Assembly: GCA_963740355.1 (NCBI GenBank)
Contig: CAVUDW010000002.1
Span: 2,112,001-2,176,000 of the forward strand
Source: an uncultured Gemmatimonadaceae bacterium
GTDB lineage: Bacteria > Gemmatimonadota > Gemmatimonadetes > Gemmatimonadales > Gemmatimonadaceae
Length of the DNA: 64,000 nucleotides
Reading direction: 5' to 3'
Positions within the stretch are counted from its first letter, which is position 1. Every line of letters starts with the position of its first letter. Both the position numbers and the translations under genes were made by a program. The notes beneath the pieces were generated by a model, which saw only the letters and a program-made list of their open reading frames with translations, searched no databases and was not told the DNA's origin. Shown piece after piece: positions 42,444 through 60,350 of this stretch.

Positions 42444-42451
42444 GCGCCTCC

Positions 42452-43510: not shown

Positions 43511-43547
43511 CGCGGCCCGGGCCGAGCCAACGCGCGGCCCGCGCGTC

Positions 43548-43940
43548 ATGCTGCTCACCGCCGGTGGGCACACGGTGGCGATGGCGGCGACATCCGCGCG
43601 CGAAGTGCTGCCGCTGACGGCGGCGATTCGGTTGCCCGCTGCGCCTGAGTTCGTCTGCGGGGTAGTCAATGTGCGGGGCACCCTCGTCCCGCTCGTCGAT
43701 CTCGGTCGCCTCCTGCAGGCGGAGCCCGCCAACCCGGCTGGATGGGTGGTGACGCTCGACCTCGGAGGCCGACGGTGCGCCCTGGCGGTGGACTCGCTGC
43801 CGGTGCTGCGCGCCGCCGATGCGCCCCCCGGCGCACGCCCGACCAGTCATGCCTACCTGCAAGCCGAGGTGCGTGTGGCGGGAACCGCGCTGCCGCTGCT
43901 CGATGTGGATGCGCTGGCCGACGACATCCTGCTCCAGTAA
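43548..43940 (+). CDS. cheW: CheW domain protein
   Basis: REVLP...RLPAAPEFVCGVVNVRGTLVPLVDL, ALAVD, LLDV. Alternative start at 43446. Confidence 0.88.
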   Translation: MLLTAGGHTVAMAATSAREVLPLTAAIRLPAAPEFVCGVVNVRGTLVPLVDLGRLLQAEPANPAGWVVTLDLGGRRCALAVDSLPVLRAADAPPGARPTSHAYLQAEVRVAGTALPLLDVDALADDILLQ

Positions 43941-43941
43941 G

Positions 43942-43961
43942 TCCACGCGACGACGCGTGGA
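43942..43961 (+). other. Intergenic hairpin between cheW and cheY
   Basis: TCCACGCG-ACGA-CGCGTGGA, no U-tract. Confidence 0.45.
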
Positions 43962-43979
43962 GTCCCCAAGGATCACCAC

Positions 43980-44342
43980 ATGAGTCATCGCGTTCTGGTG
44001 TGTGACGACGCTCTCTTCATGCGTACGCTCGTCGGCGACATCCTGCAGCAGGCAGGCTTCTCCGTCTGTGGCCAGGCCGAAACCGGTGCACAGGCCGTCG
44101 CACAGTACAAGGCGCTCAAGCCTGACCTCGTGACCATGGACATCGTCATGCCCGACATGGGTGGCATCGACGCCGTCAAGGAGATCACGAGCTGGGACCC
44201 GAACGCGAAGGTCGTGATGTGCAGCGCGATGGGCCAGCAGGCGCTCGTCAACGAAGCGCTGCAGGCCGGTGCCTCCGATTTCGTCGTCAAGCCGTTCCAG
44301 CCGAACCGCGTCATCGAGGCAGTGCAGCGCGTGCTGGGCTGA
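43980..44342 (+). CDS. cheY: CheY response regulator (Bacillus/Thermotoga-like)
   Basis: CDDALFMR, PDLVTMDIVMP, MCSAMGQ, DFVVKPF. Confidence 0.95.
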   Translation: MSHRVLVCDDALFMRTLVGDILQQAGFSVCGQAETGAQAVAQYKALKPDLVTMDIVMPDMGGIDAVKEITSWDPNAKVVMCSAMGQQALVNEALQAGASDFVVKPFQPNRVIEAVQRVLG

Positions 44343-44381
44343 GTCGCCTGCGGCGACATCACCGCCTGAGGACCGCTCCCG

Positions 44382-46283
44382 ATGGAGCCGCATCGAATGC
44401 TCACGCTCTTCCTCGCGGAAGGGCGTGAGCTGTTGAATCGGATGGACGCCGAGCTGCTGGTGCTCGAGCGATCACCCGATGCGCGTGGTGCGCTCGATGC
44501 CGTGTTTCGTGCGGCGCATTCGCTCAAGGGCATGAGCGCCACCGTCGCGCTCAACGACACCGCTGCCGCGCTGCATGCCGGCGAGTCACTTCTCGCTGCA
44601 GCCCGTGACAGTGGCCAGCTCGATGCGGGGCAACTCCGCGCATTGCTAGCGCTGATCGACGGCACGCGACGAGCGCTCGACGATGCTGAGCAGGGCTCGA
44701 TGCAGTCACCGTCGATGCGAGAACTCGCGGCTGAACTGGAGGCGCTCGTGCCCCGAGTGCCGGCCACGGGTGCGCCGGATCGGCTCCGTGCCTCACGCGT
44801 CGTGCAGCGTGCGACAACCGCCGTTGGCGCACGCTGGAGGGTCGACGTCGTGATCGACGCCGATGCCGCCATTCCGCAGGCGCGCGCCACCATCGTGCTG
44901 CGCAAGCTCTCGGCGCTGGCCTCGGTCGTCGCGGTGGTACCGGATGCCGACACACGCGCAGCCGACGATTGGGATCGGGCGTTCACCGTCTGGCTTGGCG
45001 ATGCGACCGCGGGATCGCCGGCGCCCCTCGATGCGGCAGCACTCGAAAACGCGACCCGCAGCGCGGGGGACATCGCCGAGTGCCACGTGGCGCGCGAGGT
45101 TGCAGCGGCGGCGGACGTCGGTGAGGCGACTGCCGCGCGCACGGTACGCATTCCGGCACAGCGCCTCGACGACCTGCTGGACCTGGTTGGAGAACTCGTG
45201 CTCGCGCGTGATCGACTGCTCCGAACCGTGGCACCGACCGCCGACGACGCCGGACAGCGCGCGCTGGACGACACCTCGCGCCTGATCATGCAGCTGCGCG
45301 ATGCCATCCTCACCAGTCGCATGGTGCCGTTGGCGCAGGTCTTCGATCGATTCCCGCGGCATGTTCGCGACACTGCGCATGCACTCGGCAAGGAGATCGA
45401 CCTCGTGCTCGAGGGTCGCGAGCTGGAAGTTGATCGATCACTGCTCGATGAACTGAGCGATCCGATCCTCCATCTGCTGCGTAATGCAGTCGATCATGGA
45501 CTCGAATCCCCAGATGACCGCCGGCTGGCGGGCAAGAGCGCGCGCGGCCGACTGGTCGTGCGTGCCGTGCGCGATGGATCGATGGTCGCGGTGACCGTGG
45601 CGGACGATGGCCGCGGTGTGGATCGCGATCGTGTCGCGGCGTCGGCTGCGGCGCAGGGCGTCGCCGGCGCAGCGGCACTGGCGCAGGATGACGGGGGCCT
45701 GCTGCAACTGCTGGCGCGTCCTGGCCTCAGCACCGCAGCCACCGTCACCGCGCTCTCGGGCCGCGGTGTGGGTGTGGACGCGGTGCTCAGTCGCGTGCAG
45801 GCGCTCGGTGGCCGCCTGGAACTCGCGACTGCGGCGGGTGAGGGCACCGCGATCACCATCCGACTTCCGCTGAGCGTCGCGATGCTGCGGGCACTGCTGG
45901 TGCGTGTTGCCGACGAGACGTACGCCATCCCGCTCACGATGGTGCAGGCGACGCACCTCGGCGACACGCTCCACGCGACAGATCGGCATGACCCGCGCGC
46001 GCCGCTTCCAGAGGATGTGGAGATCGCTGGAACGCGACTGCGCTTGGTGAGCTTGCGCTCACATCTTGGCCTGCCCCCGCGGGATGACGTTTCGGGTCAT
46101 CTGGTCGTCCTTGATGGTGCCACAGGTCGTGTGGCCTTGCTCGTGGACACCTGTGTGTCCCAGCAGGAGATCGTCGTCAAGCCGCTGCAACGCGTCCGCG
46201 GCTCGGCCTCGATGTTCAGCGGGGGCACGATCCTTCCCGACGGAACACCGTCGCTCATTCTGGACATCAACACGCTGCCCTGA
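44382..46283 (+). CDS. cheA: CheA histidine kinase
   Basis: Hpt FRAAHSLKG, P2-like region, LDDLLDLVGELV, HLLRNAVDHG, DDGRG, SGRGVG, C-terminal CheW domain. Confidence 0.95.
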   Translation: MEPHRMLTLFLAEGRELLNRMDAELLVLERSPDARGALDAVFRAAHSLKGMSATVALNDTAAALHAGESLLAAARDSGQLDAGQLRALLALIDGTRRALDDAEQGSMQSPSMRELAAELEALVPRVPATGAPDRLRASRVVQRATTAVGARWRVDVVIDADAAIPQARATIVLRKLSALASVVAVVPDADTRAADDWDRAFTVWLGDATAGSPAPLDAAALENATRSAGDIAECHVAREVAAAADVGEATAARTVRIPAQRLDDLLDLVGELVLARDRLLRTVAPTADDAGQRALDDTSRLIMQLRDAILTSRMVPLAQVFDRFPRHVRDTAHALGKEIDLVLEGRELEVDRSLLDELSDPILHLLRNAVDHGLESPDDRRLAGKSARGRLVVRAVRDGSMVAVTVADDGRGVDRDRVAASAAAQGVAGAAALAQDDGGLLQLLARPGLSTAATVTALSGRGVGVDAVLSRVQALGGRLELATAAGEGTAITIRLPLSVAMLRALLVRVADETYAIPLTMVQATHLGDTLHATDRHDPRAPLPEDVEIAGTRLRLVSLRSHLGLPPRDDVSGHLVVLDGATGRVALLVDTCVSQQEIVVKPLQRVRGSASMFSGGTILPDGTPSLILDINTLP

Positions 46284-46915
46284 TGCTGGCTATCCGCGAT
46301 GTGCGTAGTCTGAACGCCGAGCAGCTCGACGCGTTGCGTGAAGTGGCCAACATCGGCGCCGGTCACGCTGCCACTGCGCTCTCGACCATGACCGGGCAAT
46401 CGATCATGATCAAGGTGCCCACGGTCACCATCGCGCGACTGGATGAGGTGCCCGGGCACGTGGTGGCGAATCCTGAGGATGCCGTCGCCGTGGTGCTGCT
46501 GCAGATGCTGGGCGACCTCACCGGTCGCGCCTTGCTCGTCTTTCCCGAGTACACGGCCTGTCGCCTCGCGGAAATGATGTTGCAGCGGCCGCGTGGTTCA
46601 TCGCCGACGATCGCGCTCCTCGAGCAGAGTGCGCTGAAGGAGTGCGGCAACATTCTCAGCGGCGCCTACCTCAATGCGCTCGCAGATTTCATGCACCTGA
46701 TGCTGCTGCCGTCACCGCCGACGCTGGCCGTCGACATGGCCAGCGCCGTGCTCAGCTCCGCTTTCCTGCAGTTCGGCGATGGTCGTGACGTCGTGTTCTG
46801 CGTCGAGAGCGAATTCCAGATGCGCGACGATGGCGAGTCGCTGCGCGGCTACTTCCTGCTCCTGCCCGACATCGGATCGCTGCAGAAGATCCTGCACGCG
46901 GTCAACCGCGCCTGA
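46283..46915 (+). CDS. cheC: CheC phosphatase
   Basis: Two active-site motifs, DALREVANI and SALKECGNI. Confidence 0.93.
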   Translation: MLAIRDVRSLNAEQLDALREVANIGAGHAATALSTMTGQSIMIKVPTVTIARLDEVPGHVVANPEDAVAVVLLQMLGDLTGRALLVFPEYTACRLAEMMLQRPRGSSPTIALLEQSALKECGNILSGAYLNALADFMHLMLLPSPPTLAVDMASAVLSSAFLQFGDGRDVVFCVESEFQMRDDGESLRGYFLLLPDIGSLQKILHAVNRA

Positions 46916-46937
46916 TTTTCGCAGTCCAGAGATTCCT

Positions 46938-49415
46938 ATGTCGGTGACCCCGCAGTCGGTGCCAGTGTTGTCGATCCGTGAGACGGATCGGCTGCGCGCG
47001 ATCGCGCGCCGGGTGCCTGCGGGCAACGCCGGCGCGCAGAACAACTGCGGTGTCATGCTCGCCCGTCGCAGCCTGGCGCATGAAGCCGCGGCCTGCTTCG
47101 AGCGCGCACTCGATGTCGATGCGCGCATGACGCTGGCGGCGCAGAACCTGCAGCAGCTGGCCGCGCGCACCACCGTCGATGCCGAACGCGTCAAGCTGCT
47201 CACGGACACGCTTCGGCAGCAGCCGCACGATGTCGGCACGGCGTTGGCGCTTGGCAAGTGGCACGCGCGCCTCGGTCGACCGGCCGATGCCGCCACCGTC
47301 CTTGGGGAGCTGCTCGACCGGTCACCGGATGACCTGACCGCGCTGCGCGAGATCGCCCTCGTCGAACAGGCGCTGGGCTACCCCGACCGTGCATCGGCGT
47401 GGCTCGACCGCGCGCTTGCGCTCGCGCCGAACGACGTCTCGCTGCACGCACTCTCCGGCGAAATTCTCTATCGCCGCGGCAAGACCGAGGCCGCCAAGCG
47501 CGCGCTCGAGCGTGCACTCGAGATCGACGAGTCGGCCGCCTGGCCGCAGCACCTGCTGGCGTTCGTGCTCGGTGACATGGGGCAGCTGGAGGAGGCGCAG
47601 GCCGCAGCGCAGCGTGCGTTGCAGCTCGATCCCAACCTCGCGCGCGTCGACATGAACCTGACGCTCGACGCGCGGCCGCTGAAGCCAGTGCCGCGCGCCG
47701 CCGGCGACAGCGATGGCCGCGCTCACCTCACCCTCGGCGTGGCCTACCGCAACACCGGCTACTTCGATCAGGCCCTCGCCGAGTTCGAGACGGCACTCAA
47801 TCGCGGTGAACCGGCCTCGCAGGTGTGGACGGCGGTGGCAGAGACGCGGTTGATGCGCGACGAGTGGGCACTGGCCGCCGCGGCATATGCCGACGCGGCC
47901 CGCGCCACGCCAGGCGCCAGCGCACCGCTCGTGGCGCGCGCGGCGGTGTTGGTGCGGAATGGCGATCTCGCGGATGCGCGCCAGGCAATCGAGCAGGCGC
48001 TCGGCTGTGACGGCGACACCGGCAGCGCACAACTGGTGCTCGGCGTGCTCGAGGCGCTCGAACAGCATCCCGTCGAGGCCCTCACGGCATTCCAGCGTGT
48101 GCGCGGGACGTCACGCGTGGAACTCGCTGCACGACTGAACGCGGCCTGGGTGATGCGACAGCTCGGCAGGCATGCGGAGTGCCTCGAAGGATTCCGTCGC
48201 GTTACGGAGGCCGATCCCCAAAATGCGCGCGCGTGGATCGGTGTCGGTGTTGCATTCAGCGAGCTGCGTCGCCTGCACGAAGCCTGCAGTGCCTTCGAGC
48301 GAGCCGTGACGCTGGCGCCGGAAAGTGCTGATGCGGCGTACCACCTCGCCTTCACGCTCTCGCAGCTCGGTCGGTATCAGGATGGTGTGCGTGCGATGAA
48401 GCGTGCCATGAGCTTCGAGGATGAGTTCGCGCCATTCCGGTTCCTGCTCGTACTCGAACCGGAACTGCCGGATTTTGTGCTCGAAGTCGTCGCCAACGAC
48501 GCCGTCACCGGTGACGCCATGGCGCTCATGATGCTCAGTGGAGCGCCGCGTCCGAACGTGACATCCGAGCAGAGCGTCGTGCTCGCGGAGCAGACGCCCG
48601 CACACCCGATGCGTGCCGCACTCGCGCCGATCGCTGACGCGGACAAGAAACGCACGCCACTGGGTGCGTGGGTCGCGCTCCGTCGCGGAGGCACGCCGGT
48701 GTCGCAGACCGGTGTCAATCATCGCGTCACTCGCCGCACGCCGGCGATCCCCTTCGTTCGTGTCACCGGATCCAGCTTGCCGCCGGTGAGTGCACCACGT
48801 GACACCGCGCCGATGCGCGCCGTTGGGCCGTCACCGATCGCACCTGCCATCGTGCGGAGTGCGGAAAGTGCGCTCCGAACCGCGCTGGCCGGCGATCCCG
48901 ATCTGGCACAGGTCCGCGTCGGCCTCGCGGCGTTGCTGCGTGAGGATGGTCGTGTGCAGGACGCGGAGCAGGAGTTGATCCGCGCTTTGGAGAGTGTGCC
49001 GACGTTCCATGATGCCGCACGTGCACTCGCCGAACTGCGCGTCGACATGGGCCGGCCGAGCGACGCCATGCAGGCCTTGGTGCGTCCGCTCCGCGCCAAC
49101 CCGCGTGATGCCGACCTGCTGGTGGCACTGGCGGAAGCGTTGCTCGCGCTTGGCCGCGAAGAGCAGGCGATGTCCGCCATCTCGCGCGGCGCCGCGGTGT
49201 CGCCGGATCACGCCGGTGTACGCACCTTGCAGGGCTATCTCGCGCTGCGTGCGGGACGTGAAGCCGAGGCGATGCAGCACTGGCGCGTGGCTGCAGTCTG
49301 CGCCACTGATGATCGCTGGGGCACACGGGCGCGACTCGCGCTGGCGGAACATGACGACATCGATGTGCCGCAGACGCCGGTCACGCTGGATTCCGTGCGA
49401 CTGGTGAAGGGCTGA
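46938..49415 (+). CDS. Large multi-TPR protein
   Basis: Many TPR signatures (AQNNCGV, AHLTLGVAY, AWIGVGVAF, AAYHLAFTL) separated by a Pro/Arg/Thr-rich linker. Confidence 0.85.
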   Translation: MSVTPQSVPVLSIRETDRLRAIARRVPAGNAGAQNNCGVMLARRSLAHEAAACFERALDVDARMTLAAQNLQQLAARTTVDAERVKLLTDTLRQQPHDVGTALALGKWHARLGRPADAATVLGELLDRSPDDLTALREIALVEQALGYPDRASAWLDRALALAPNDVSLHALSGEILYRRGKTEAAKRALERALEIDESAAWPQHLLAFVLGDMGQLEEAQAAAQRALQLDPNLARVDMNLTLDARPLKPVPRAAGDSDGRAHLTLGVAYRNTGYFDQALAEFETALNRGEPASQVWTAVAETRLMRDEWALAAAAYADAARATPGASAPLVARAAVLVRNGDLADARQAIEQALGCDGDTGSAQLVLGVLEALEQHPVEALTAFQRVRGTSRVELAARLNAAWVMRQLGRHAECLEGFRRVTEADPQNARAWIGVGVAFSELRRLHEACSAFERAVTLAPESADAAYHLAFTLSQLGRYQDGVRAMKRAMSFEDEFAPFRFLLVLEPELPDFVLEVVANDAVTGDAMALMMLSGAPRPNVTSEQSVVLAEQTPAHPMRAALAPIADADKKRTPLGAWVALRRGGTPVSQTGVNHRVTRRTPAIPFVRVTGSSLPPVSAPRDTAPMRAVGPSPIAPAIVRSAESALRTALAGDPDLAQVRVGLAALLREDGRVQDAEQELIRALESVPTFHDAARALAELRVDMGRPSDAMQALVRPLRANPRDADLLVALAEALLALGREEQAMSAISRGAAVSPDHAGVRTLQGYLALRAGREAEAMQHWRVAAVCATDDRWGTRARLALAEHDDIDVPQTPVTLDSVRLVKG

Positions 49416-50557
49416 TGGCACTCGAGGGCGCACTCCGCGATCTGGGCCTCGCTGAAGTGATTCAGCTGCTGGCTGGCGGACGACGCACGGGCGCACTGCG
49501 CGTCTCCGGCGGTGCTGGCGCGCGCGGCGCCATCCTGCGCTTCGTCGATGGCGCGATCGCGGCAGCGCGGTGGGATGATGAGCCCGAACCGTTGCTCAGC
49601 GCCTTGTCGCAGTCAGGCCAGATCGACGCCGATGATCGCAGTGCGGCGGCGCGGTGGGCCAGCGAGCAGTCGCCGCCACGATCCTTGGTCGATGGGCTGG
49701 TCGAAACCGGGTGCATCACCACGCGCACACGCGACACGGTTGCACGACGGCTCATCGATGATCTCTGCTTCGAGCTCACCACGTTCGCCGAAGGCACCTT
49801 CTCGTTCAACGACGGCGAGAAGGCGAGTGCATTGGAACCCACCACCAATCTCAACCTCTCCGGCGAAGAACTCTTCCTCGATGCCGCTCGCCGGCGCGAT
49901 GAATGGCCGGCGATCGAATCGCGAATCGGGTCGCTCGGCGCCGTGCCGGTGGTCTGTGATTGTGATGCCGACGGTGAGCTGGCGGTGCCGGCCGACGGGT
50001 GGCGCGTGCTGTCGTGTGTGGATGGCTGTCGCACCGTGCGCCAGGTGGCCTCTGCCGCCGGCATGCGGGTGTTCGAGACCGCGCGCTGGATATCGCGCTG
50101 GACTGCACTCGGCGCACTCACCACCGACGCGCGCGCCACCACGGCCGAGGATGGCGATGCGATGGCTGGCGTGGCGCAACTCACCGCGCAGGCGCGCCGT
50201 GCCTTGGCGGAGTCGCGGTTCGAGGTGGCCCTCGCTGCGGCCCGAACCGCGATTGGTCATGCGCCGCGCAGCGCCGCCGCCCACGTCCTCGCGGGTCGCG
50301 CACTGCTCGGCCTCGGGCGCACCGAGGACTGGGCCGAGGAGGTCCGCGTCGCGGTGCAGCTGGACCCGCTCCTTCCCGAGGCGCAGGAGCAGTATGGGTA
50401 CGTGGCGGCACGGAAGGGCGAATACGCTGCCGCACTGAACGCGTGGGAGCACTATCTTGAGGCAGCACCGACTGCGCCGGACGCGGCCAGGGTGCGAATC
50501 GCTCGCGATGCTGCGGCGCAACTCCAGGAACTGATCTCCGCACATGCCGGCAGCTGA
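49415..50557 (+). CDS. DUF4388 (PATAN-like) domain plus TPR protein
   Basis: MALEGALRDLGLAEVIQLLAGGRRTGALRV, EGTFSF, LDAARRRDEW, VDGCRTV, C-terminal TPRs. Confidence 0.82.
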   Translation: MALEGALRDLGLAEVIQLLAGGRRTGALRVSGGAGARGAILRFVDGAIAAARWDDEPEPLLSALSQSGQIDADDRSAAARWASEQSPPRSLVDGLVETGCITTRTRDTVARRLIDDLCFELTTFAEGTFSFNDGEKASALEPTTNLNLSGEELFLDAARRRDEWPAIESRIGSLGAVPVVCDCDADGELAVPADGWRVLSCVDGCRTVRQVASAAGMRVFETARWISRWTALGALTTDARATTAEDGDAMAGVAQLTAQARRALAESRFEVALAAARTAIGHAPRSAAAHVLAGRALLGLGRTEDWAEEVRVAVQLDPLLPEAQEQYGYVAARKGEYAAALNAWEHYLEAAPTAPDAARVRIARDAAAQLQELISAHAGS

Positions 50558-51287
50558 CGACATTCGCCGTTGGAGCAACGAACTCGCCACCGACCCGCAA
50601 AGCCTTGCCTTTGCGGACCTCGCCGAGGCGTTGCGCCAGCAGGGAGACCTCGAAACCGCCGAGCGATTGGCGATCCGGGGACTCGAGCGGCACCCCACCC
50701 ACGGTCCGGCGCTCAACGTGCTCGCGCGCATCGCCGAGGCGCGTGGTGATCTGAACGCGGCCGCGGCGTATTGGGAGCGCTCGCGTCAGCACAATCCGAC
50801 GCCTACCTCCGGCGCCGCCAATGGCAGCGCGCCGTCACCACGCACGAACGGGTTCGGTGAGGCCGCCGCCACCGGAGCCAGCCGCGTGACCGGTGCCGCC
50901 TATCCAACGGCCAGTTACGCGGCCGTGCCGAGTTTTTCTGCGACGCTCGCCACCCCTGTCAGCCGACCGGAAGTGGTGCGCTCGCTCGTTGCCGACGCCG
51001 ATGGCCTGCTGCTCGCCAGCCCACAGCCGAGCGATGACATGGCCGTGCTCGAGGCGATGGCGGCCGCAGTCGCCGGCGTGGGGGACGACGCCGCCAGAGC
51101 GATGAAGCACCTCAACCTCGGAACCTGGCACGCGCTGGTGCTGGAAACGGCGGGTGACTCACTCGCCCTCGCTCCGGCACCGGCAGGATCGCTGACGGTC
51201 CTCAGCGTGGCGCCGCATGTGCCGATCGGGCGCGTGCGCGCATTGCTTCGCGTGGCAACGGCGAGAGCCGCTGCCGACGGCTTCTGA
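50544..51287 (+). CDS. TPR plus roadblock/LC7 domain protein
   Basis: DPQSLAFADLAEALRQQGD...GLERHP; C-terminal VRSLVADADGLLLAS...EAMAAAV...LNLG...PIGRVR. Confidence 0.75.
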   Translation: MPAADDIRRWSNELATDPQSLAFADLAEALRQQGDLETAERLAIRGLERHPTHGPALNVLARIAEARGDLNAAAAYWERSRQHNPTPTSGAANGSAPSPRTNGFGEAAATGASRVTGAAYPTASYAAVPSFSATLATPVSRPEVVRSLVADADGLLLASPQPSDDMAVLEAMAAAVAGVGDDAARAMKHLNLGTWHALVLETAGDSLALAPAPAGSLTVLSVAPHVPIGRVRALLRVATARAAADGF

Positions 51288-51298
51288 GAGACCACGCC

Positions 51299-51643
51299 AT
51301 GGCGCAATACGACCTCGTGGTCGATGAACTGATGCACACCGCCGGTGTGCACGCCGCACTGATCGTCTCGCGTGCAGACGGCATCGTGGTGGATGGAAAC
51401 GTGCACATCGGGACCGACGCCGATGCCATCGCTGCCCTCGCCGCTCGCCTCTACGGCCGCGCGGCGCAGGCGGCGACCGCAGCAGACGGGACCGAGCCGG
51501 GATTTCTGCACCTCGAAGGCGAGCGGGGCAGGGTCTGCTGTGTGCCGCAAGGCGACCTGCTGCTGGTCACGGTGGCAGAACCATGGGCGAACCTCGGCCT
51601 GCTCCGCCTCACCATGCGGCGGCTCGCGCAGAGCCTCGGCTGA
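51299..51643 (+). CDS. Roadblock/LC7 (MglB-like) protein
   Basis: GVHAALIVSRADGIVV, DAIAALAA, LEGERG, ANLGLLRL. Confidence 0.85.
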   Translation: MAQYDLVVDELMHTAGVHAALIVSRADGIVVDGNVHIGTDADAIAALAARLYGRAAQAATAADGTEPGFLHLEGERGRVCCVPQGDLLLVTVAEPWANLGLLRLTMRRLAQSLG

Positions 51644-51833
51644 GCTCGGTTTCTGGCTCGTAGATGAGGTCGGCAAAGGGCTCGTGGCTGAGCTCGGCGC
51701 GATGTATACGGAAGTCTGCACGACGACGCGGCTGAGGCGTGCCGCGCGGAATCGTTCGGGATCGATCTGTGGCAAGCAGCCTCAAGTGCCCAATCCGGTA
51801 GGCCAGTCGTCGTTGGCTGGACACCGCAGACTC

Positions 51834-53753
51834 ATGAAACTCGATCAACGCCTCCGCTTCGATACCTTCGTCACAGGCTCGTCCAATCGCCTCGCTGTCG
51901 CCGCTGCCAAAGCGGTGGCCGATGCGCCAGGCGTCCTGTACAACCCGCTGTTTGTGTACGGCGCGTCTGGCCTCGGCAAGACGCACCTGATGCATGCGGT
52001 GGGCCACTCCGCCAAGGACAAGCAACCGTCCCTTGGCGTCGAGTACGTCGCGCTCGACGACTACATGGAGGAATTCCATCAGGCGTTGCAGGGCGGTCGA
52101 CTGGACACCTTCAAGAAGCGATACGAGTCCGCCGGCGTCCTGCTCCTCGACGACGTGCAGTTCCTTACGGGGCGCGCAGAGGTGCAGGGTGAATTGCTGC
52201 GCCTGTTCAACGTGCTCCAGGGACGCGGCACGCAGATCGTGATGACCAGTGATCGGCCACCCGATGAGATCACCGATGTCGCCGACCGATTGCTCACGCG
52301 CCTCACCGGCGGGCTGATCGTCGATGTCGGCATCCCGGACTACGAAACGCGTGTGGCCATCCTGCAGAAACTGCAGGGAGAGCGTGCGTCGCGATTCCGC
52401 GATGGTGTGCTCGAGGAACTCGCGCGTGTCGACTTCTCGAACATCCGTGAATTGCAGGGCGGTCTCAATCGGCTGCTCGCGCATCAGGGATTGAGCGACT
52501 CGGCGATCGGCGTCTCCGATGTCCGTCGCCTCGTCGGTGCCCGCGCCACGCCGCTCGCCAACGCGGCCATCTACGGCGAGATCGAGCAACACGAACGCGA
52601 CAACGACACGATCGACTACGACACCTTCGTGCAGGAAGTCGCGACGGCCGTCGTCGAACAGGTCGAGGAGTGGCGCGTTCGACTCGCCGATGCCGCCGCA
52701 CGGTGGCGCGCCGAGGGCATCAGTGTTGCCGTCCTCGATCGTGCGCTGCAACTGCGCGAGGCGCCGGACGTGGAGGGATTGCTGGCGACGTTCGGTGCTG
52801 CCGTCGAATACCTGCGCGATCTCGAGCGCCAGGGTTCCGCCGCCGATACCACGCTGTCTGGGCATGCGATCTTCCGTGATCCGGAGCGTGTGAAGGAAGC
52901 GCATGCACTGGTGCAGCAGGCCGTCTCGTCGATCGAGCCGCCACCACGCCCAGATCCGGCCTTCATCTTCGGCACCCTGCACGAGGGACGGGCCAACCAG
53001 CTCGCACTCCGCGCAGCACGCGCCGTTGTCGAGGCGCCGGGTACGCAGTACGTCCCCCTCGTCATCACCGGCCCATCGGGCAGCGGCCGTACGCACTTGC
53101 TGCATGCCATCGGCAATGCACTGATCGACGCTGGAGTGCAGACGGTCGCCTGTGTCTCCGCGGCCACGTTCGCCGAACAGCTCATCACCGCGCTGCGCGA
53201 AGGTGCGGTCGAGAAGTGGCGCGCGCGGTACCGCAATGCTGGCGCACTGCTTCTCGATGACATCGAGGCGGTGGCGGGCAAGGAACGCACGCAAGACGAA
53301 CTCTTCCACCTGTTCAATGCGTTGCAGAGCGCAGGACGACAGGTGGTGCTGACGTCGAGTGTCCCACCGAACCAGCTCGCAACGCTCGAGGACCGACTGC
53401 GGACACGATTCGCGCAGGGCCTGATCGTGGAGCTTGGCAGCCCGGACACCGCACAGCGCGTGGCCGTCATCACCAGCGTCTTCCACGCCCATCATGCGCG
53501 CGTCGATGACGCCGTGGTGGCCCAGCTCTCGGATCGTCCCGCGCGGTCGATTGGCGACGTGATTGCCACCGCACGTCGATTGCACGCTGCCGCGACACTT
53601 GCCAACGCGCCCATTACCGCAGCCTTCGTGGCAGCGGAGTTGGACGGTGCCGTCGCACCGCGCCGCGGACTGAAACACCTCATGGGTGACCCGGAGAATT
53701 TCGTGCATCGCTGGCCCGACCTCACGGCGCGTCTCAGCGAGGACGCTGACTGA
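51834..53753 (+). CDS. Tandem DnaA/Hda-type AAA+ ATPase without DNA-binding domain
   Basis: Domain 1: FDTFVTGSSNRLA, YNPLFVYGASGLGKTHL, LLLDDVQF, TSDRPP, PDYETRVAIL, SNIRELQG. Domain 2: GRANQLA, YVPLVITGPSGSGRTHL, LLLDDIE, TQDELFHLFNAL, LEDRLRTRF. Confidence 0.88.
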   Translation: MKLDQRLRFDTFVTGSSNRLAVAAAKAVADAPGVLYNPLFVYGASGLGKTHLMHAVGHSAKDKQPSLGVEYVALDDYMEEFHQALQGGRLDTFKKRYESAGVLLLDDVQFLTGRAEVQGELLRLFNVLQGRGTQIVMTSDRPPDEITDVADRLLTRLTGGLIVDVGIPDYETRVAILQKLQGERASRFRDGVLEELARVDFSNIRELQGGLNRLLAHQGLSDSAIGVSDVRRLVGARATPLANAAIYGEIEQHERDNDTIDYDTFVQEVATAVVEQVEEWRVRLADAAARWRAEGISVAVLDRALQLREAPDVEGLLATFGAAVEYLRDLERQGSAADTTLSGHAIFRDPERVKEAHALVQQAVSSIEPPPRPDPAFIFGTLHEGRANQLALRAARAVVEAPGTQYVPLVITGPSGSGRTHLLHAIGNALIDAGVQTVACVSAATFAEQLITALREGAVEKWRARYRNAGALLLDDIEAVAGKERTQDELFHLFNALQSAGRQVVLTSSVPPNQLATLEDRLRTRFAQGLIVELGSPDTAQRVAVITSVFHAHHARVDDAVVAQLSDRPARSIGDVIATARRLHAAATLANAPITAAFVAAELDGAVAPRRGLKHLMGDPENFVHRWPDLTARLSEDAD

Positions 53754-55378
53754 TGGCGATTCGTGGTAGCCTCAAGGAAGCGAGCTTTCCCGATGTGCTC
53801 CAACTGCTGGCACTGGGACAAAAATCCGGGTGTCTCAGCATCGTGGACGGCACGAAGTTCGGCTCGGTGTTCTTCCAGAACGGCAAGATCTCCTTTGCGG
53901 CGATCGTCAATCGACGCGATCGACTTGGCGACTCGCTCGTCAAGCGCGGGCACATCACCAAGGACCAGCTCGAGGATGCACTTCGTGCGCAGCTGACACA
54001 CCCGGGCCGCCGCGTGGGCGAGTTGCTGGTGGAGCTGGGCTTCGTGGCGCGCGAAGTGGTCGAGAAGGAACTGCGATCACTGGTGGAGGACGCGGTGTTC
54101 TCGCTCTTCACCTGGACGCAGGGAATCTGGACCTTCGAGCCCGACGTCCATCCCGATGGTCGTCAGCTCATGACGGCCATCAACCCTGAGTCGCTGCTGA
54201 TGGAAGGCGCGCGACGCACCGACGAGTGGGCGCTCGTCGAGCGACGGTTCCCGACCTTCGATCTCGTCTTCGAGATGGACGCGGCACGTGCAGGCCAGTC
54301 CACGCCGCTGAGCGGCGAGCTGGCCGAGGTCGCGCACCTGCTCGACGGCCGGCGCACCATTCGCGCCGTGATCGAACGCTCCGGCCTCGGTGAGTTCACG
54401 GTCGGCAAGGCGCTCTACGAGTTGGCGATGCAAGGGTTGCTGGTGCAGGTCACCAACGCCGAGACGGTGCGCAGCGACGACTCTGACATCGGCGGCACGA
54501 CGGCCGAGAAGGCGCTCAAGATGGGACTCGCGCTTGCCAAGGCCGGCATGATCGAGGACTCCGCCCGCGAATTCCGTCGTGTCGTCGAAGCCTCGCCCAA
54601 CGATCCGATTGCGCGGCACCAGCTCGGGCTGCTGGCGCTCAAGCAGGGGGAGTGGGACGATGCAGTGGGCTGGCTGGAACCGTTGGCGCAGCTGGACGAT
54701 GCGTCGTCGACGATGCTCCATCATCTGGCTCTCGCGTACGAGGGGCTGGGTCGCGAGCTTGATTCCGCACGCACGCTCGAGCGCGCCGCACGGTCGGGTG
54801 GGATGTCATCGCCGCAAGTCGAACTGTCGCGCGCGTTGCACGCCTTCCAACTCGGCGACTACGTGCGCGCCGACGCGATGCTCGCTTCCGCCCGCACCCG
54901 GTTCGACGGCGATGCGCCACCGGCCGTCTGGTTTCACTACGCGTCTCTGGTGGCCGCGGCGCGCGATGATGCCGATCAGGCGCAAGCGCTGCTCGAGGAA
55001 GGGATTCGCACACATCCCTCGGTCGGTGTGCTGCACGCCAACTACGCGGCACTGTTGCTCACACGCGGCGCGCTGACGGCGGCTGCGGCAGCTGTGGAGC
55101 GCGGGATGCTGCACGCCGCCAATCTCGCGCCGTTCCAGAAGACGGTCGGCGACCTCGCGTATCGTGTCGCGCGTTTCGACGATGCCATGGAAGCGTATCA
55201 GCGCGCCGTGCGGCTCGAACCGTCACTCGGTCCAGATGTGTACCTGAAGCTCGGTGAATTGCGGTACCAGCGCGGTGAGACACTTGAATCGCAGCGTTGC
55301 TGGCAACGCGTGCTCGAACTCGATCCAGGCAATCGTCAGGCGCAAGTCAGCCTCGATGCCATTCGACGTGCCTCATGA
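53753..55378 (+). CDS. DUF4388 (PATAN-like) domain with MshEN-type insert plus TPR repeats
   Basis: MAIRGSLKEASFPDVLQLL, RLGDSLVKRGHITKDQLEDALRAQ, LLMEGARRTDEW, LDGRRTI, TPRs. Confidence 0.85.
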   Translation: MAIRGSLKEASFPDVLQLLALGQKSGCLSIVDGTKFGSVFFQNGKISFAAIVNRRDRLGDSLVKRGHITKDQLEDALRAQLTHPGRRVGELLVELGFVAREVVEKELRSLVEDAVFSLFTWTQGIWTFEPDVHPDGRQLMTAINPESLLMEGARRTDEWALVERRFPTFDLVFEMDAARAGQSTPLSGELAEVAHLLDGRRTIRAVIERSGLGEFTVGKALYELAMQGLLVQVTNAETVRSDDSDIGGTTAEKALKMGLALAKAGMIEDSAREFRRVVEASPNDPIARHQLGLLALKQGEWDDAVGWLEPLAQLDDASSTMLHHLALAYEGLGRELDSARTLERAARSGGMSSPQVELSRALHAFQLGDYVRADAMLASARTRFDGDAPPAVWFHYASLVAAARDDADQAQALLEEGIRTHPSVGVLHANYAALLLTRGALTAAAAAVERGMLHAANLAPFQKTVGDLAYRVARFDDAMEAYQRAVRLEPSLGPDVYLKLGELRYQRGETLESQRCWQRVLELDPGNRQAQVSLDAIRRAS

Positions 55379-55903
55379 CCGCGCTGGCGGCGCCGCCGTA
55401 CGCGCCTGACTCGCGCGCGACAGTCGAGGCCGACGTGCTGACTGTCGTGATGGGCAAGGCTGGTGTCGCGCATGAAGGCACGCTGTTGCGAACCGTTGGC
55501 CTGGGATCATGCGTCGCCGTGATCATCTTCGCGCCGCAGCAGCGCCTTGCTGGCCTCGCGCACTGCATGTTGCCTGATCGCGAGGACGCGGATGACCCGC
55601 CGTCGCGATTCGTCGACACCGCCGTGCCCGCGCTGATCGACGAACTGCAGGCCGCAGGGAGCATCCGCGCCGTACGCTGCGGCACTGGTCGGCGGCGCCT
55701 CGATGTTTCCCGGCGTGTCCACCGGGTTCGTGCGCGACATCGCCGGAAGCAATCTCGAACGTGCGCGTGCCGCGCTGGCCGCCGCCGCCGTGCCGGTTCG
55801 TGTCGAAGACGTCGGTGGCAGCGAGGGACGCTCGGTGCTCGTCGATCCCGCCACCCAACGCGTCCGGGTGCATACGATGCGCGGTGGCGACCGGTGGCTG
55901 TGA
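55375..55903 (+). pseudogene. cheD: CheD deamidase with a 1-nt frameshift (possibly a sequencing error)
   Basis: LRTVGLGSCVAV, GLAHCMLP, RFVDTAV, then in another frame LVGGASMF, EDVGGSEGRSV. Deleting one G at 55657-55659 gives 175 aa. Confidence 0.85.
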
Positions 55904-56003
55904 TGACCGCCCTCCGTCCGATACTCTTCATCTCGATGTCTTCGGCCGCGCTCGACAGGGCGACGGTAGTGCCGCCCCGTGGCGGTAGTCCTCTGGAGCG
56001 TTC

Positions 56004-57104
56004 GTGACGATCCTGCCCCCCTCAGCGGAAGACGTGCTGAGCCCCCTGCGTGCGCAGGTGGACGATCTCGCGCGCGACCTCACCACCGACGCCGCAGCGG
56101 CGGACCACGGTGTCCTGCTCAAGCAGCGCATCTTCCTGCTCCACCGCGCCGTGGAACAGCACGCACAGCTGATCGAGCAGTTGCAGGGTGAAGTCCGCTC
56201 GCTCGTCGATGGCTGGAAGGGGCGGTTTGCGTCGGGCGGCGGCTCGTCGCTCACCCCGCTCAGTTCGGCGGCCATTTCGTCGACGCCAAGGGCGCCGGCA
56301 GCACCCGCCGCCGCGCCGACCCAGAGCCGGACCGCAGCGCCGTCGGCCACCGCTGTCGTCGCGGTGCCGGAGCCCCCTCCGACCGCTGTCGCTGCCACCG
56401 TACCCGCGCCAACGCCGGCCGTCGAACACACCAACGGATTCGCGACCGGGGCCTCGCGTACGCAGATGCCCATGGCCGTGCCAGGCCAGCCGCGCGTGAT
56501 CGACGAGTTGAACGCATCGACCTTCGTGGAGCGCGGCTGGAGTCGGATCGCGACCGGCGACTACATCGGCGCCGAGGAGGCCCTCGAAAAGGCCCTTGCC
56601 CTCAACCCGGGTGACGCGCATGCGGAGACGCTGCTCGGGTGGGCCCAGATGTCGCAAGGGAAGTTCGACTCCGCGATGGCGCTCTTTCAGCAGGTGCTCG
56701 ATCGGGTGCCCGACCACGCCCTCGCGCACATCAACGTCGGCTACGTCCTTTTTCGCCGTCGACAGTTCGATGAGGCCGAAGAGCATCTCGATCGCGCCAT
56801 CGCCCTCGATTCGGATCGAAAGGCGACGTTATACGCGCACTACTATCTGGGGCTGGTGCATTTCGAGCAGCAGCGGTACGCCGAGTCGATCGGTGCCCTG
56901 CTGCGGGCGATCGAGCTGGGTCCGAACCTGATCGAGGCCCGATTCGAGCTGGGCCGGGTACTCTGGTTTGCTGACCGCACCGACGACGCGATCGCCGCGT
57001 GGCGCAAGGGCGCGGAGGTGAACAAGTTCAACCCATGGAGTGCTCGCTGTCGCGATATGCTGGCGACCATCGCCGACGGGGGCGCGCCGACGCGCGTGGC
57101 CTGA
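56004..57104 (+). CDS. Coiled-coil plus TPR protein
   Basis: N-terminal coiled coil, Pro/Ala linker, TPRs (AETLLGWA, AHINVGYV, AHYYLGLV, ARFELGRV). Confidence 0.85.
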   Translation: MTILPPSAEDVLSPLRAQVDDLARDLTTDAAAADHGVLLKQRIFLLHRAVEQHAQLIEQLQGEVRSLVDGWKGRFASGGGSSLTPLSSAAISSTPRAPAAPAAAPTQSRTAAPSATAVVAVPEPPPTAVAATVPAPTPAVEHTNGFATGASRTQMPMAVPGQPRVIDELNASTFVERGWSRIATGDYIGAEEALEKALALNPGDAHAETLLGWAQMSQGKFDSAMALFQQVLDRVPDHALAHINVGYVLFRRRQFDEAEEHLDRAIALDSDRKATLYAHYYLGLVHFEQQRYAESIGALLRAIELGPNLIEARFELGRVLWFADRTDDAIAAWRKGAEVNKFNPWSARCRDMLATIADGGAPTRVA

Positions 57105-58084
57105 GCAGTTTCTGGTGGGCACTGCTGTGGTGCGCGTCGGTACTCGTGGCGTGGGCATCACCGGTCACTGCGGCACCACCCGGTGCCCTCCGTCTCGATC
57201 GCGGCCGCTTCACGGTGGTCCACTACAGTGACGATGCCACGCTGGCGCATGCTGCGCTGAACGCCGCGGCGTCACGCGACACCTTTCCCTGGTTGCCGCG
57301 GGCGTCGACACGGATCGTGATCATGGTCGCGCCCGACGCCGCCACCTTTCGCGAGTGGGCGGGACAGAGTGCGGCCAGCTGGGCGGCAGCGGTCGCGTTT
57401 CCCGACCAGCACCGCGTGGTCGTGCAAGGCGGGAAGGCACCCGCCGACGCCGGAGATCCGACCCAGGTGCTGCGACATGAACTCGCGCACGTCGCCTTGC
57501 ACGACTATCTCGGTGATCTCCCACCGCGATGGTTCGACGAGGGCTACGCCAGCTTTGCTGCGGGCGAGGAGCGCATGGATGGCTTCGTCTCGACGAACCT
57601 CGCGCTGGTGTTCAGAGGGATGCCAGCACTGGCTACGCTCGACACGATGATCGGCAGCCCGCGTCCCACGGAGGCGCGCGCCGGCTACGCGCTCGCCCTG
57701 CGCGCCGTCTCCGACCTCGCCGCCATCGACACGCAGCGCGGTCTCGGGCCGATGTTCGTCGCGTGGAAGGAGCGCGGCAGTCTCGACCTCGCCATGCGAC
57801 GCGCGTTCGCGCTCACCTCGGATGATTTCCAGCGCGGTTGGCAGCAGCGCGCGCGGTGGCAGTTCGCGTTTCTCGCGCTGGCGGCCGACTCGGCGATCAC
57901 CGGGAGCGTGCTCCTGCTTGGGCTATGGCCGATGTACCGCCGCCGACGGCAGGCCCAGCGAGATCGCCTGGAGGCGATGCGCGAGCGGGAAGCCATCACC
58001 GAGAGCGCTGCCCGGAGTGCTGCCCTCGACGTCCTGCTGCACGCGATCGGGCCTGAGCGACCCCGAGCTGGCCCCGATGCTTGA
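57101..58084 (+). CDS. Peptidase MA-like zinc metalloprotease with C-terminal membrane anchor
   Basis: HELAH...PRWFDEG gluzincin-type motif, hydrophobic N-terminus. Start codon uncertain. Confidence 0.78.
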   Translation: MSSFWWALLWCASVLVAWASPVTAAPPGALRLDRGRFTVVHYSDDATLAHAALNAAASRDTFPWLPRASTRIVIMVAPDAATFREWAGQSAASWAAAVAFPDQHRVVVQGGKAPADAGDPTQVLRHELAHVALHDYLGDLPPRWFDEGYASFAAGEERMDGFVSTNLALVFRGMPALATLDTMIGSPRPTEARAGYALALRAVSDLAAIDTQRGLGPMFVAWKERGSLDLAMRRAFALTSDDFQRGWQQRARWQFAFLALAADSAITGSVLLLGLWPMYRRRRQAQRDRLEAMREREAITESAARSAALDVLLHAIGPERPRAGPDA

Positions 58085-58109: not shown

Positions 58110-58116
58110 GAACCCT

Positions 58117-58622: not shown

Positions 58623-60350
58623 GTGAGCGTTCGGATTCCTCAGATCGCGTGGCTCGGTCTCGTCGCCGGTAGCATGTCCTGTGCGCTTGAAGCACAGGTG
58701 GCCCGTGCGCCAGACCCCAATACGCCGCGCATGATGGTGCTGACGTTCCGCACTGCCACGCCGGGCAACTCCGGCGTTCAGGCAGCGGACGCACTGCGCT
58801 CGCGTATGGGCTCTGAAGTCCCGTACAAGCAACTCTGGCAGATCCCGAACACGGAAATCAACGCCGTGCTCGAGGCCTCCGGCTACAAGAAGGACGAACC
58901 ACTCTCGTCCAACGATGCCCGCGAACTCGGCCGTCAGCTCCGTGCGGATGAGTTCGTTCAGGGCTTTGTCCGCCGTGACGGCGAAGCCTGGCGCATCGAA
59001 GCCACGCTGCACCTCGTTCGCGACCCGTCGCTGGCACAGCCGCTGACACTCCAGTCTGCCGCCAAGGCTGGTGACGCTGCCAAGCTCATCGCGGCCGAGC
59101 TCGTCGAGGCCCGCAAGCAGCTGGTGCCGGAACGCGCCTGCGTGAATGCCGCCCGGGACAAGAACTGGGACAAGGCCATGGCGTCGGCGCGCGAAGGGAT
59201 TGCCCTCTTCCCGAAGGCCGTCATCGCCCGTACCTGCCTGCTCAACGCGATGGTCGAGACCAAGGCCACCGACGAAGCACAGCTCGCCATGGCAGAAGAA
59301 ATTCTCGCCATCGATTCGCGCAGCCGCCGTGCATTGTCGATTGCCGGTGACATCTATCGTCGCCGCAACCTCGCCAACCCGAAGGACACCACGAACGCGA
59401 ACAAGATGATTCAGGCCTACACCGGCCTGATCGCTGCCGACCCGACGAACACCCGCCTCGTCGACGACGTCACGAAGGCCATTGCCGGCGCCGGTAACCC
59501 GGGCGTGGCACTGCCGATCATCCGCAAGGCCGTTGAAGAGAATCCGGGCGATGCATCGCTGATGCGCACGCAGTTCCTCGTCGAGCTCGCTGCTCGCGAT
59601 ACCAAGAATGCCATCCGCACGGGCACCGAACTGGCCGCGCTCGACACGGCCATGGCCGACACGAATTACTTCTTCCGCATGGCTGCGGCGTACCAGCAGG
59701 ACAGCCAGCCGGCCAAGGCCGCCGAAGTGATCGCGCAGGGTGTTGCCAAGTTCCCGGAGAGCGCCAGTCTCCTCGTCGTCTCGGCCCAGGCGCAGCGCGC
59801 CGCTGGTCAGACGCAGCAGGCTGTCGAGACCCTGAAGAAGGCACTCACGCTCGATGCCAACGTCGAGCGCGGACAGCTGCAGCTCGCACAGCTGTACAAC
59901 GACCTCAAGCAGCCGGACAGTGCTTACGCCGCGCTGGTTCGTGCCGACAAGGGCGCTGACAGCGTACTCGTGGGTGACGTCGCACTCGACCTTGGCAACA
60001 AGGCGCAGCGTGAAGTCGCAGCGAAGCCCGACGCGACCGACGTCGACTGGACCAACGTCGTCAACTTCCTCACGCTGGCCGACAACAACGCCACCAGCCC
60101 CGAGCGCAAGCAGCAGGCGAAGTTCCTCCTCGGCACCGTGGCGCTGCGTCGTGGTCAGGCGTTGCTCAAGGCGGGCGTCGATGGCAAGAACTGCGCGATG
60201 GTCAAGTCCGCAGGCGAACAGCTGGCGATCGCCCAGGTCAACGTGCCTGCCGGTGGACGTTTCGCTCCGCAGGCCGCTGGCCAGCTGATGCAGGCGCTCG
60301 GCCAGTTGCTGCCGGCGTCGGCCCAGGCCGAAAAGGCGATCTGCAAGTAA
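58623..60350 (+). CDS. Exported TPR-rich protein
   Basis: GGAGG then GTG; signal peptide ending ALEA|Q; helical repeats. Confidence 0.8.
   Translation: MSVRIPQIAWLGLVAGSMSCALEAQVARAPDPNTPRMMVLTFRTATPGNSGVQAADALRSRMGSEVPYKQLWQIPNTEINAVLEASGYKKDEPLSSNDARELGRQLRADEFVQGFVRRDGEAWRIEATLHLVRDPSLAQPLTLQSAAKAGDAAKLIAAELVEARKQLVPERACVNAARDKNWDKAMASAREGIALFPKAVIARTCLLNAMVETKATDEAQLAMAEEILAIDSRSRRALSIAGDIYRRRNLANPKDTTNANKMIQAYTGLIAADPTNTRLVDDVTKAIAGAGNPGVALPIIRKAVEENPGDASLMRTQFLVELAARDTKNAIRTGTELAALDTAMADTNYFFRMAAAYQQDSQPAKAAEVIAQGVAKFPESASLLVVSAQAQRAAGQTQQAVETLKKALTLDANVERGQLQLAQLYNDLKQPDSAYAALVRADKGADSVLVGDVALDLGNKAQREVAAKPDATDVDWTNVVNFLTLADNNATSPERKQQAKFLLGTVALRRGQALLKAGVDGKNCAMVKSAGEQLAIAQVNVPAGGRFAPQAAGQLMQALGQLLPASAQAEKAICK

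Follow-up and report, generated by a model that had tools for sequence, protein, structure and literature searches.

To our knowledge, Myxococcus is the only case studied in depth in which a chemosensory pathway governs cell polarity through a Ras-like GTPase, and the wiring is still debated there. The Frz pathway of Myxococcus xanthus acts on MglA/MglB(/MglC)/RomR, and a tetratricopeptide repeat (TPR) effector, SgmX, activates type IV pili (PMC3441718, PMC7519303, PMC7668184, PMC4316618). The cyanobacterial Tax/Pix systems encode PatA-type regulators, which join a PATAN domain to a receiver domain (PATAN-REC), together with CheA, CheW and CheY; PATAN is the output there and binds PilB1 and PilC, as shown for a Synechocystis PATAN domain, and its alpha-helical insertion is related to the MshEN/GspE N-terminus (bioRxiv 10.1101/2021.06.11.447907). 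MglA/MglB genes often adjoin PATAN genes (bioRxiv 10.1101/2021.06.11.447907; PMC4316618). Here we describe a related gene string in a soil-type member of the Gemmatimonadaceae, carried by a stretch of 64,000 nucleotides (nt) that we call the window (C2:2112001-2176000; the assembly comprises 5 contigs and 5.45 Mb; positions without a contig prefix are those of the window unless another locus is named). Positions 43548 to 57104 hold chemosensory (che) genes, genes for TPR, PATAN and Roadblock proteins, and a gene for an ATPase with two DnaA-type AAA+ modules. Judged by its gene content, this cluster is a cut-down copy of a conserved chemosensory-polarity supercluster. The first-pass annotation of the stretch was aware of no characterized chemosensory system with a DnaA-derived ATPase, and the literature searched (subscription journals being outside its coverage) agreed, containing no description of the cluster and no report that places a DnaA-derived ATPase among chemosensory or MglA components.

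Mapping of the window's proteins on 74 related loci revealed that the gene order was kept in all 53 Gemmatimonadota loci with at least three placed hits (of the other loci, 19 were from Patescibacteria and had an ordinary single-module DnaA alone, and 2 were too short), which bears out the earlier proposal that the genes form one unit. The order kept was rluD, cheW, cheY, cheA, cheC, TPR, PATAN1, TPR-Roadblock, Roadblock, ATPase, PATAN2, cheD, TPR, peptidase and TPR, where PATAN1 and PATAN2 denote the two PATAN genes of the cluster. Eight further loci from other families contained the full cluster in the same order at 32–43% ATPase identity. On these matches, gene order is conserved across Gemmatimonadales at protein identities down to 32–50%. 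We also searched a phylum sample of 201 genomes for the ATPase, with a two-module match defined either as E ≤1e-60 with coverage past residue 260 or as two hits in one frame. In the window's own family, 27 of 39 genomes had such a match; the counts for the other families were at least 93 of 96 (f2), 3 of 3 (f3), 4 of 4 (f4), 2 of 23 (f7), 0 of 11 (f6) and 0 of 19 (f10–f12) (tallies that include four genomes flagged as unpublished, G057, G097, G157 and G182). Two f7 loci, L113 and L114, exhibited a minimal form consisting of rluD, ATPase, PATAN2, peptidase and a receiver-like gene, without Che or GTPase genes; rluD, which precedes cheW in the window, directly precedes the ATPase gene in these loci.

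Comparison with a fuller cluster revealed which parts are missing from the window. Locus L057, whose ATPase is 49% identical to that of the window, has by Pfam the order cheY, cheA, cheC, TPR, PATAN1-TPR, TPR-Roadblock, Roadblock, third Roadblock, GTPase and ATPase, continued after the ATPase by PATAN2-TPR, cheR, cheD, cheB, cheW, cheW, TPR, peptidase and TPR. The third Roadblock gene of this locus lies at its positions 8896–9360 and the gene for a Ras/Arf-like small GTPase at 9375–9992, overlapping the start of the ATPase gene. Of the distant loci that extend upstream of the ATPase gene, 34 of 34 had a GTPase gene directly before it (three more distant loci begin at or inside the ATPase gene), as against 0 of the 16 loci of the window's clade, whose ATPases are 86–92% identical. 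The window and its 16 close relatives lack the third Roadblock gene, the cluster GTPase, cheR, cheB and the two extra cheW genes, and no remnants of a third Roadblock, GTPase, cheR, cheB or cheW gene were detected in the gaps 51600–51860, 55340–55470 and 55840–56500 (tblastn with word size 2; best E 0.048). The earlier observation that cheC and cheD bracket six non-Che genes holds for the window, but not for relatives outside its genus-level clade, in which cheC is followed by an eight-gene block and then by cheR-cheD-cheB-cheW-cheW. The window's genome has two further che loci, C2:226198-231430 (some 40 kb away from FlhA, C2:186288) and C3:144234-151363, and these do contain cheR and cheB; the genome encodes three CheA proteins, one of them in the cluster.

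The fate of the GTPase was further indicated by the MglA paralogues, of which two were present in each of five other Gemmatimonadaceae genomes (5/5) and one in the window's genome. The housekeeping copies of the relatives are 80–84% identical to this only MglA, and their cluster copies 55–63%. It is encoded at C2:1410396, within G000:C2:1409886-1411082 (L107 9886-11082), beside an MglB-like Roadblock gene and in the context dnaX-ybaB-recR ... pgsA-cinA. Since the single MglA of the window's genome is of the housekeeping type, the dedicated cluster paralogue was lost and not moved.

The twelve-gene string was recovered where the first-pass annotation had placed it, entirely on the + strand and with the named domain families present (open reading frames, start codons, Pfam and NCBIfam). 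The genes, the gap in which relatives carry two more, and the conserved downstream neighbors are as follows (aa, amino acids; E-values in parentheses).

43548..43940, + strand: cheW, 130 aa (Pfam CheW 1.7e-20); ATG at 43548, 37 nt past rluD
43980..44342, + strand: cheY, a single receiver domain (Response_reg 1.4e-30)
44382..46283, + strand: cheA, classical P1–P5 architecture without a receiver domain (Hpt, P2, H-kinase_dim, HATPase_c, CheW)
46283..46915, + strand: cheC, family of phosphatases of phosphorylated CheY, CheY-P (CheC 1.2e-21, CheX 1.4e-10)
46938..49415, + strand: large TPR protein, about 825 aa (many TPR families, TPR_2 6.5e-42); its place after cheC is conserved
49415..50557, + strand: PATAN1, a DUF4388/PATAN domain with C-terminal TPR (DUF4388 9.3e-21, residues 4–164)
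50544..51287, + strand: TPR-Roadblock fusion, TPR N-terminal (Robl_LC7 1.6e-08 at residues 141–220)
51299..51643, + strand: Roadblock/LC7 protein, 114 aa (Robl_LC7 3.3e-12)
51644..51833, no strand: gap of 190 nt; relatives have the third Roadblock gene and the MglA-type GTPase gene here
51834..53753, + strand: AAA+ ATPase with tandem DnaA domain III, 639 aa (Bac_DnaA 2.6e-100, in 2 stretches)
53753..55378, + strand: PATAN2, a PATAN domain with an MshEN-type insertion (residues 51–108) and TPR (about 250–541) (DUF4388 3.5e-36)
55447..55903, + strand: cheD, frameshifted in the assembly (CheD models match the N-half of the open reading frame only)
56004..57104, + strand: TPR protein with 160 N-terminal non-TPR residues (TPR_2 7.1e-30)
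56999..58084, + strand: membrane protein with a Peptidase_MA-like domain and HELAH motif (Peptidase_MA_2 2e-05, under the cut-off)
58623..60350, + strand: conserved neighbor, a TPR protein whose N-terminus is signal-peptide-like (TPR_14 3e-09)

By Pfam, the core of a Che pathway is present, namely CheA with Hpt, dimerization, kinase and CheW-like domains, CheW and CheY, and cheY is the best-conserved gene of the cluster (88–99% identity in the clade, 71–80% in distant genera). CheC additionally matched the NCBIfam model CheC_Thtogales at 1.8e-49, under that model's cut-off. PF14332 (DUF4388) was found in both PATAN proteins, and no NCBIfam model for a cyclic di-GMP (c-di-GMP) motif matched PATAN1. 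The Roadblock/LC7 fold was assigned to two cluster proteins, the TPR-Roadblock fusion and the 114-aa Roadblock protein. Alignment of the TPR protein 56004..57104 to distant relatives was limited to its C-terminal 53–60%, and the place of the TPR gene 58623–60350 was conserved in related loci. No gene for a methyl-accepting chemotaxis protein (MCP) was found in the window, and none in the cluster of 3 relatives checked; the genome has 10 MCPsignal matches elsewhere, the nearest about 75 kb off.

The ATPase proved to be DnaA-derived, as first proposed, by Bac_DnaA matches in two stretches, by Foldseek matches to DnaA domain III and by its initiator-clade motifs. Its layout comprises module 1 (residues 1–235), a disordered linker (236–265), a helical middle domain (261–365), module 2 (375–605) and a tail (606–639). 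The AlphaFold2 model (mean predicted local distance difference test score, pLDDT, 83.7; predicted template modeling score, pTM, 0.47) exhibited two confident AAA+ modules and a disordered tail; with a pTM of 0.47, the relative placement of the modules is not fixed by this model. The best single-module Foldseek match was domain III of Bacillus subtilis DnaA (8bv3_A; TM 0.94, root-mean-square deviation 1.5 A, 44% identity), and module 1 is 43% identical to domain III of the genome's own DnaA, encoded at C2:18684. Motifs were compared in 45 sequences, those of the window and of 44 loci, taken from the best tblastn segment starting at or before residue 12 and ending at or after residue 560; loci that were split or truncated, or that belonged to Patescibacteria, were excluded, and the set includes L028, whose genome is unpublished. 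Analysis of this alignment revealed that the Walker A lysine, the Walker B DD, the SDR motif, both box VII arginines and the sensor-2 arginine of module 1 were invariant (45/45), as was the box VII arginine pair of module 2 (45/45). The Walker residue of module 2 followed the GTPase: all 29 loci that have the GTPase carry lysine (29/29), and all 16 that lack it carry arginine (16/16). The window's clade has further changes in module 2, from SDR to SSV and from the sensor-2 arginine to glycine, and the GTPase-free loci L113 and L114 have fully lost Walker A and B of module 2 and kept the arginine pair and the tail motif. As judged from these residues, the second ATP site is degenerate in both lineages lacking the GTPase. 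A separate pattern was seen in L108, L109, L110 and L112, from f2 genera with full clusters, where the arginine finger and sensor 1 of module 1 are degenerate and module 2 is intact, the reverse of the window's clade.

Analysis of PATAN2 recovered the MshEN-type c-di-GMP motif that had been proposed for it: NF053729 matched residues 57–105 with 50.4 bits (cut-off 38), and matches to MshE (5htl, 1.2e-06) and PilF (6f8l, 8.3e-07) were found in PDB, with a tandem RLGxxL..G pair at residues 54–101. PATAN2 thereby carries a predicted MshEN-type c-di-GMP site. The tail of the ATPase contains invariant E621, W627, R633 and E636, with P628 in 90% of sequences, and is preceded by an unconserved stretch; such a conservation pattern is typical of a docking peptide. 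An all-versus-all multimer check had been suggested for the cluster, and it was carried out for one pair, ATPase and PATAN2. The input was full PATAN2 with ATPase residues 260–639, which span the middle domain, module 2 and the tail, and separate alignments; the pair scored 0.73 (runs 0.75, 0.69 and 0.73), and the best control 0.00. The mark used for this score is reached by 116 of 157 solved complexes and by 2 of 215 mismatched pairs, and the runs had a contact agreement of at least 50% and a partner pLDDT of at least 75. The modeled interface places ATPase tail residues 615–637 in the TPR groove of PATAN2 (residues 293–496), whose columns exhibited a conservation of 0.70 versus 0.62 for the rest of the TPR domain, a value reached by 158 of 10000 random subsets. 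The complex model supports, without proving, binding of the ATPase tail to the PATAN2 TPR groove.

Constraint on the retained genes was estimated from the ratio of nonsynonymous to synonymous substitution rates (dN/dS) between the window and six clade members, at a dS of about 0.4–1.9, near saturation. The ratio was 0.00–0.13 for cheY, 0.05–0.23 for cheC, 0.06–0.12 for both PATAN genes, 0.03–0.11 for both Roadblock genes (0.03–0.09 for the gene at 51299..51643), 0.07–0.10 for the ATPase gene and 0.07–0.13 for the TPR gene 58623–60350; the housekeeping genes lspA and rluD gave 0.07–0.16. The values for cheW, cheA, the last TPR gene and the peptidase gene were 0.13–0.53 (0.18–0.27 for the peptidase gene itself). 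By the low ratios, comparable to those of lspA and rluD, the trimmed cluster is maintained by purifying selection.

The gene cheD, listed as such in the first-pass annotation, did not turn out to be intact in the assembly: its N-half and C-half lie in different frames. A DNA alignment showed one extra base near 55656 relative to seven of seven aligned close relatives, all of which have open cheD frames, so that the CheC/CheD pair consists of a CheC that is intact by Pfam and a cheD with a +1 frameshift. The extra base is also missing from a near-identical contig of public run X1 (98.5% identical, depth about 3), which lacks one base at 55656. Since neither this contig nor the relatives carry it, the lesion is either an assembly error or very recent; runs X2, X3 and X4 gave short or unlike fragments over cheD only and have no bearing on the frameshift. 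cheD exhibited the highest dN of the cluster (0.19–0.39), and the close relatives L039 and L045 have no cheD, L043 only part of it. By this pattern, constraint on the gene is relaxed in the window's clade. The Gemmatimonas-like loci L064, L067, L070, L076 and L099 have cheB and no detectable cheD past PATAN2, and cheD has therefore been lost more than once.

We interpret the cluster as a polarity or type IV pilus control switch, trimmed from the Gemmatimonadales supercluster, and give this reading an even chance. A flagellar output was rejected on the distribution of FlhA, for which 11 of the 61 genomes surveyed in the order gave a match. Among the 44 genomes in both surveys, 34 bear the ATPase; of these, 8 had a match to FlhA and 26 had none; the remaining 10 comprise 3 with FlhA and without the ATPase and 7 with neither (the genomes are related, and the counts are descriptive only). 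Because FlhA was not found in 26 of the 34 cluster-bearing genomes, the cluster is independent of flagella. The pilus reading is based on the known roles of the PATAN and MglA/MglB parts; PilB and PilT are present in the window's genome, with PilB over the cut-off there and in 3 relatives.

The proposed mechanism starts from a CheA-CheW-CheY-CheC phosphorelay, which would be co-expressed with the TPR, PATAN and Roadblock scaffolds and the double ATPase. CheA would phosphorylate CheY and CheC would reset it, and CheY-P and c-di-GMP would together act on the PATAN/TPR/Roadblock assembly. The ATPase, lacking a DNA-binding domain, would dock its C-terminal tail in the TPR groove of PATAN2 and would cycle between states, or oligomerize via its arginine fingers, and so set the place or activity of a polar machine, which we infer to be non-flagellar and most probably the type IV pilus. 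As a whole, the assembly most likely serves as a nucleotide-driven switch or scaffold through which phosphorelay and c-di-GMP inputs control that machine. A dedicated GTPase and its Roadblock partners may gate the second ATP site in full clusters. The window's clade has dropped the GTPase layer and receptor adaptation, leaving a simpler relay with a weakened second ATP site and a decaying cheD, and may borrow in trans the single housekeeping MglA/MglB pair of its genome. A more specific version, which we advance tentatively and consider doubtful as a whole, would have the initiator-derived double AAA+ protein co-opted as the nucleotide-driven core of a polarity/motility switch, tethered by its C-terminal peptide to a c-di-GMP-sensing PATAN-TPR scaffold, with its second ATP site working together with a dedicated MglA-type GTPase; ATP, GTP, c-di-GMP and the phosphorelay would be integrated in it, and the window's clade would represent a GTPase-free minimal version.

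Several points weigh against the switch interpretation. The cluster has no direct tie to pili and contains no pilus gene, and PilT was over the cut-off in 194 of the 201 phylum genomes, so that co-occurrence with pili is uninformative. The cluster also lacks an MCP gene, both here and in the 3 relatives, and the link between Che and non-Che members comes from gene order and not from modeled contacts. Docking of a peptide to TPR is a familiar mode, and the passing score of the ATPase-PATAN2 model could stem from a generic resemblance; the tail might in truth bind one of the five other TPR proteins that the cluster encodes. The association of module-2 decay with absence of the GTPase involves two lineages, too few to test, the cheD frameshift may be an assembly error, and the dN/dS values are rough, with dS near 1.

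The likeliest rival account, itself improbable, assigns the cluster an envelope or surface output other than pili, such as exopolysaccharide, adhesion, gliding or secretion, exerted through the HExxH membrane protein and the exported TPR protein encoded downstream. The Peptidase_MA-like gene follows the cluster, or the ATPase-PATAN2 pair, in every relative, L113 and L114 included, and its product, as read from the sequence, has the HELAH motif between N- and C-terminal hydrophobic segments, together with a cytoplasmic tail some 55 residues long; the TPR protein 58623–60350 begins with a signal-peptide-like segment, and c-di-GMP commonly controls surface polymers. However, the peptidase match is weak (2e-05, under the cut-off), the peptidase gene evolves faster than the core (dN/dS 0.18–0.27), and the cluster holds no polysaccharide or gliding genes.

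Coupling to replication or the cell cycle, which we regard as rather unlikely, would have the double ATPase act on the true DnaA by mixed AAA+ contacts, like Hda, with chemosensory and c-di-GMP signals tuning initiation or asymmetric division. The resemblance of module 1 to DnaA domain III (43% identity to the genome's own protein, 44% to that of B. subtilis) and the invariance of both box VII arginines in both modules (45/45) are consistent with such contacts, as is the location of the cluster, which lies downstream of yggS-divIVA-phosphorylase-ileS-dksA-like-lspA-rluD (35907–43510), a conserved division-cluster tail, and upstream of a PBP2-like gene. Housekeeping genes, however, also occupy this region around rluD, so the position may carry no functional meaning, and the role in division symmetry raised at the outset was not upheld, genomic position being its sole support. 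Hda is a single AAA+ module with an N-terminal clamp-binding motif, whereas the cluster ATPase starts 8 residues ahead of the conserved F9 of domain III and has no N-terminal extension to carry one. Pfam revealed no match to DnaA domain I or to the C-terminal DNA-binding domain IV outside the two AAA+ modules. The middle domain was considered as a decayed domain IV and rejected as such, residues 255–372 giving an hhalign probability of 0.1% against the genome's own DnaA. The fixed neighbors of the ATPase gene, moreover, encode PATAN, Roadblock and MglA-type proteins and not replication proteins.

A third possibility, that the Che genes and the scaffold/ATPase genes are separable operons, adjacent without a functional link, is quite unlikely. 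L113 and L114 keep only ATPase, PATAN2 and peptidase, so the modules do separate in evolution, and the window's clade dropped cheR, cheB and two cheW genes and kept the rest. Against this, the interleaved order, in which Che genes flank the scaffold block on either side, persists in at least four families, at ATPase identities down to 32–37%, and stop/start overlaps occur at five junctions: cheA/cheC, TPR/PATAN1, PATAN1/TPR-Roadblock, ATPase/PATAN2 and last TPR/peptidase gene. A sixth, PATAN2/cheD, is possible if cheD starts at ATG 55375. The string had been described as largely translationally coupled, which these overlaps confirm in part; of the other junctions, four are gaps of 11–39 nt and two are longer (190 nt 5' of the ATPase gene and about 100 nt 3' of cheD). 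A consensus scan of 43000–61000 returned 0 promoter-like and 4 terminator-like signals (shuffle means 0.8 and 6.7), so that no internal signal rose above chance. That the cluster is a non-functional, decaying relic in the window's clade after loss of the GTPase and adaptation genes, as several deletions, the frameshifted cheD (absent in L039 and L045) and a module 2 with Walker K changed to R and the sensor-2 arginine lost might suggest, is very unlikely, given that the retained genes are intact in 16 relatives and have dN/dS values (0.03–0.15, with dS near 1) equal to those of lspA and rluD.

The surroundings of the cluster were also annotated. The downstream side holds the genes for the Peptidase_MA-like membrane protein and the exported-looking TPR protein, followed by the PBP2-like gene. 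A 521-aa open frame on the − strand (42167–43732), antisense to rluD/cheW, is most likely a high-GC artefact, because the + strand genes there have family matches. Farther upstream, 10099–15081 encodes a type II secretion set with the secretin GspD, the ATPase GspE with an MshEN domain, GspF and the pseudopilin GspG, followed by a DUF1800/DUF1501 pair (15133–18151), and 25315–28746 encodes a Tricorn-like protease of 1143 aa with PD40 repeats, Tricorn PDZ and C1 domains and Peptidase_S41.

In Gemmatimonadales, the presumed polarity partners are thus written in one conserved string, together with an unexpected DnaA-derived double ATPase. The natural deletion variants, that is, the window's clade and the L113/L114 lineage, show which parts travel together. 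If the switch interpretation is true, an initiator-clade AAA+ module would for the first time have a role in signaling, beyond replication and transposition. The modeled placement of the ATPase tail in the PATAN2 TPR groove would be a specific and testable contact, and Gemmatimonas species are culturable.

Among known systems, the closest is Myxococcus Frz acting on MglA/MglB, followed by the cyanobacterial PatA-type systems; membership in both fails on defining features. The cluster differs from Pil-Chp (the Tfp class), in which CheA is of the ChpA type with multiple Hpt domains and a receiver, in that its CheA, with a single Hpt, lacks a receiver domain and that the window contains no MCP/PilJ. 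It resembles the MshEN receptors, Vibrio MshE (5htl) and Thermus PilF (6f8l), in the tandem motif pair at PATAN2 residues 54–101; unlike in these, the predicted binding motif is an insertion in the PATAN domain of a scaffold and not the N-terminus of a secretion ATPase. With DnaA and Hda, the ATPase shares the initiator-clade AAA+ fold, and module 1 keeps Walker A/B, sensor 1, the box VII arginines and sensor 2, whereas it differs from them in having two modules per chain, no domains I and IV, a new helical middle domain, a putative docking tail and signaling genes as neighbors. As in Tax/Pix, PATAN is encoded with CheA, CheW and CheY; unlike in Tax/Pix PatA, it is fused to TPR and has no Response_reg match, CheY is a separate protein, and the cluster has no MCP. 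No RomR-, FrzZ- or FrzS-like receiver proteins of the Myxococcus kind were seen here, and MglA beside a Roadblock partner within the cluster is absent from the window and present in 34 of 34 distant loci. The likeness to Frz/MglA lies in the Che-type phosphorelay, the TPR effectors, the Ras-like GTPase with Roadblock (the GTPase in the window's relatives only) and an output that would likewise be non-flagellar and pole-related. Unlike in Myxococcus, where the parts are scattered across the genome, they stand here in one gene string, to which a double DnaA-like ATPase and two PATAN proteins have been added and from which, in the window's copy, the cluster GTPase has gone.

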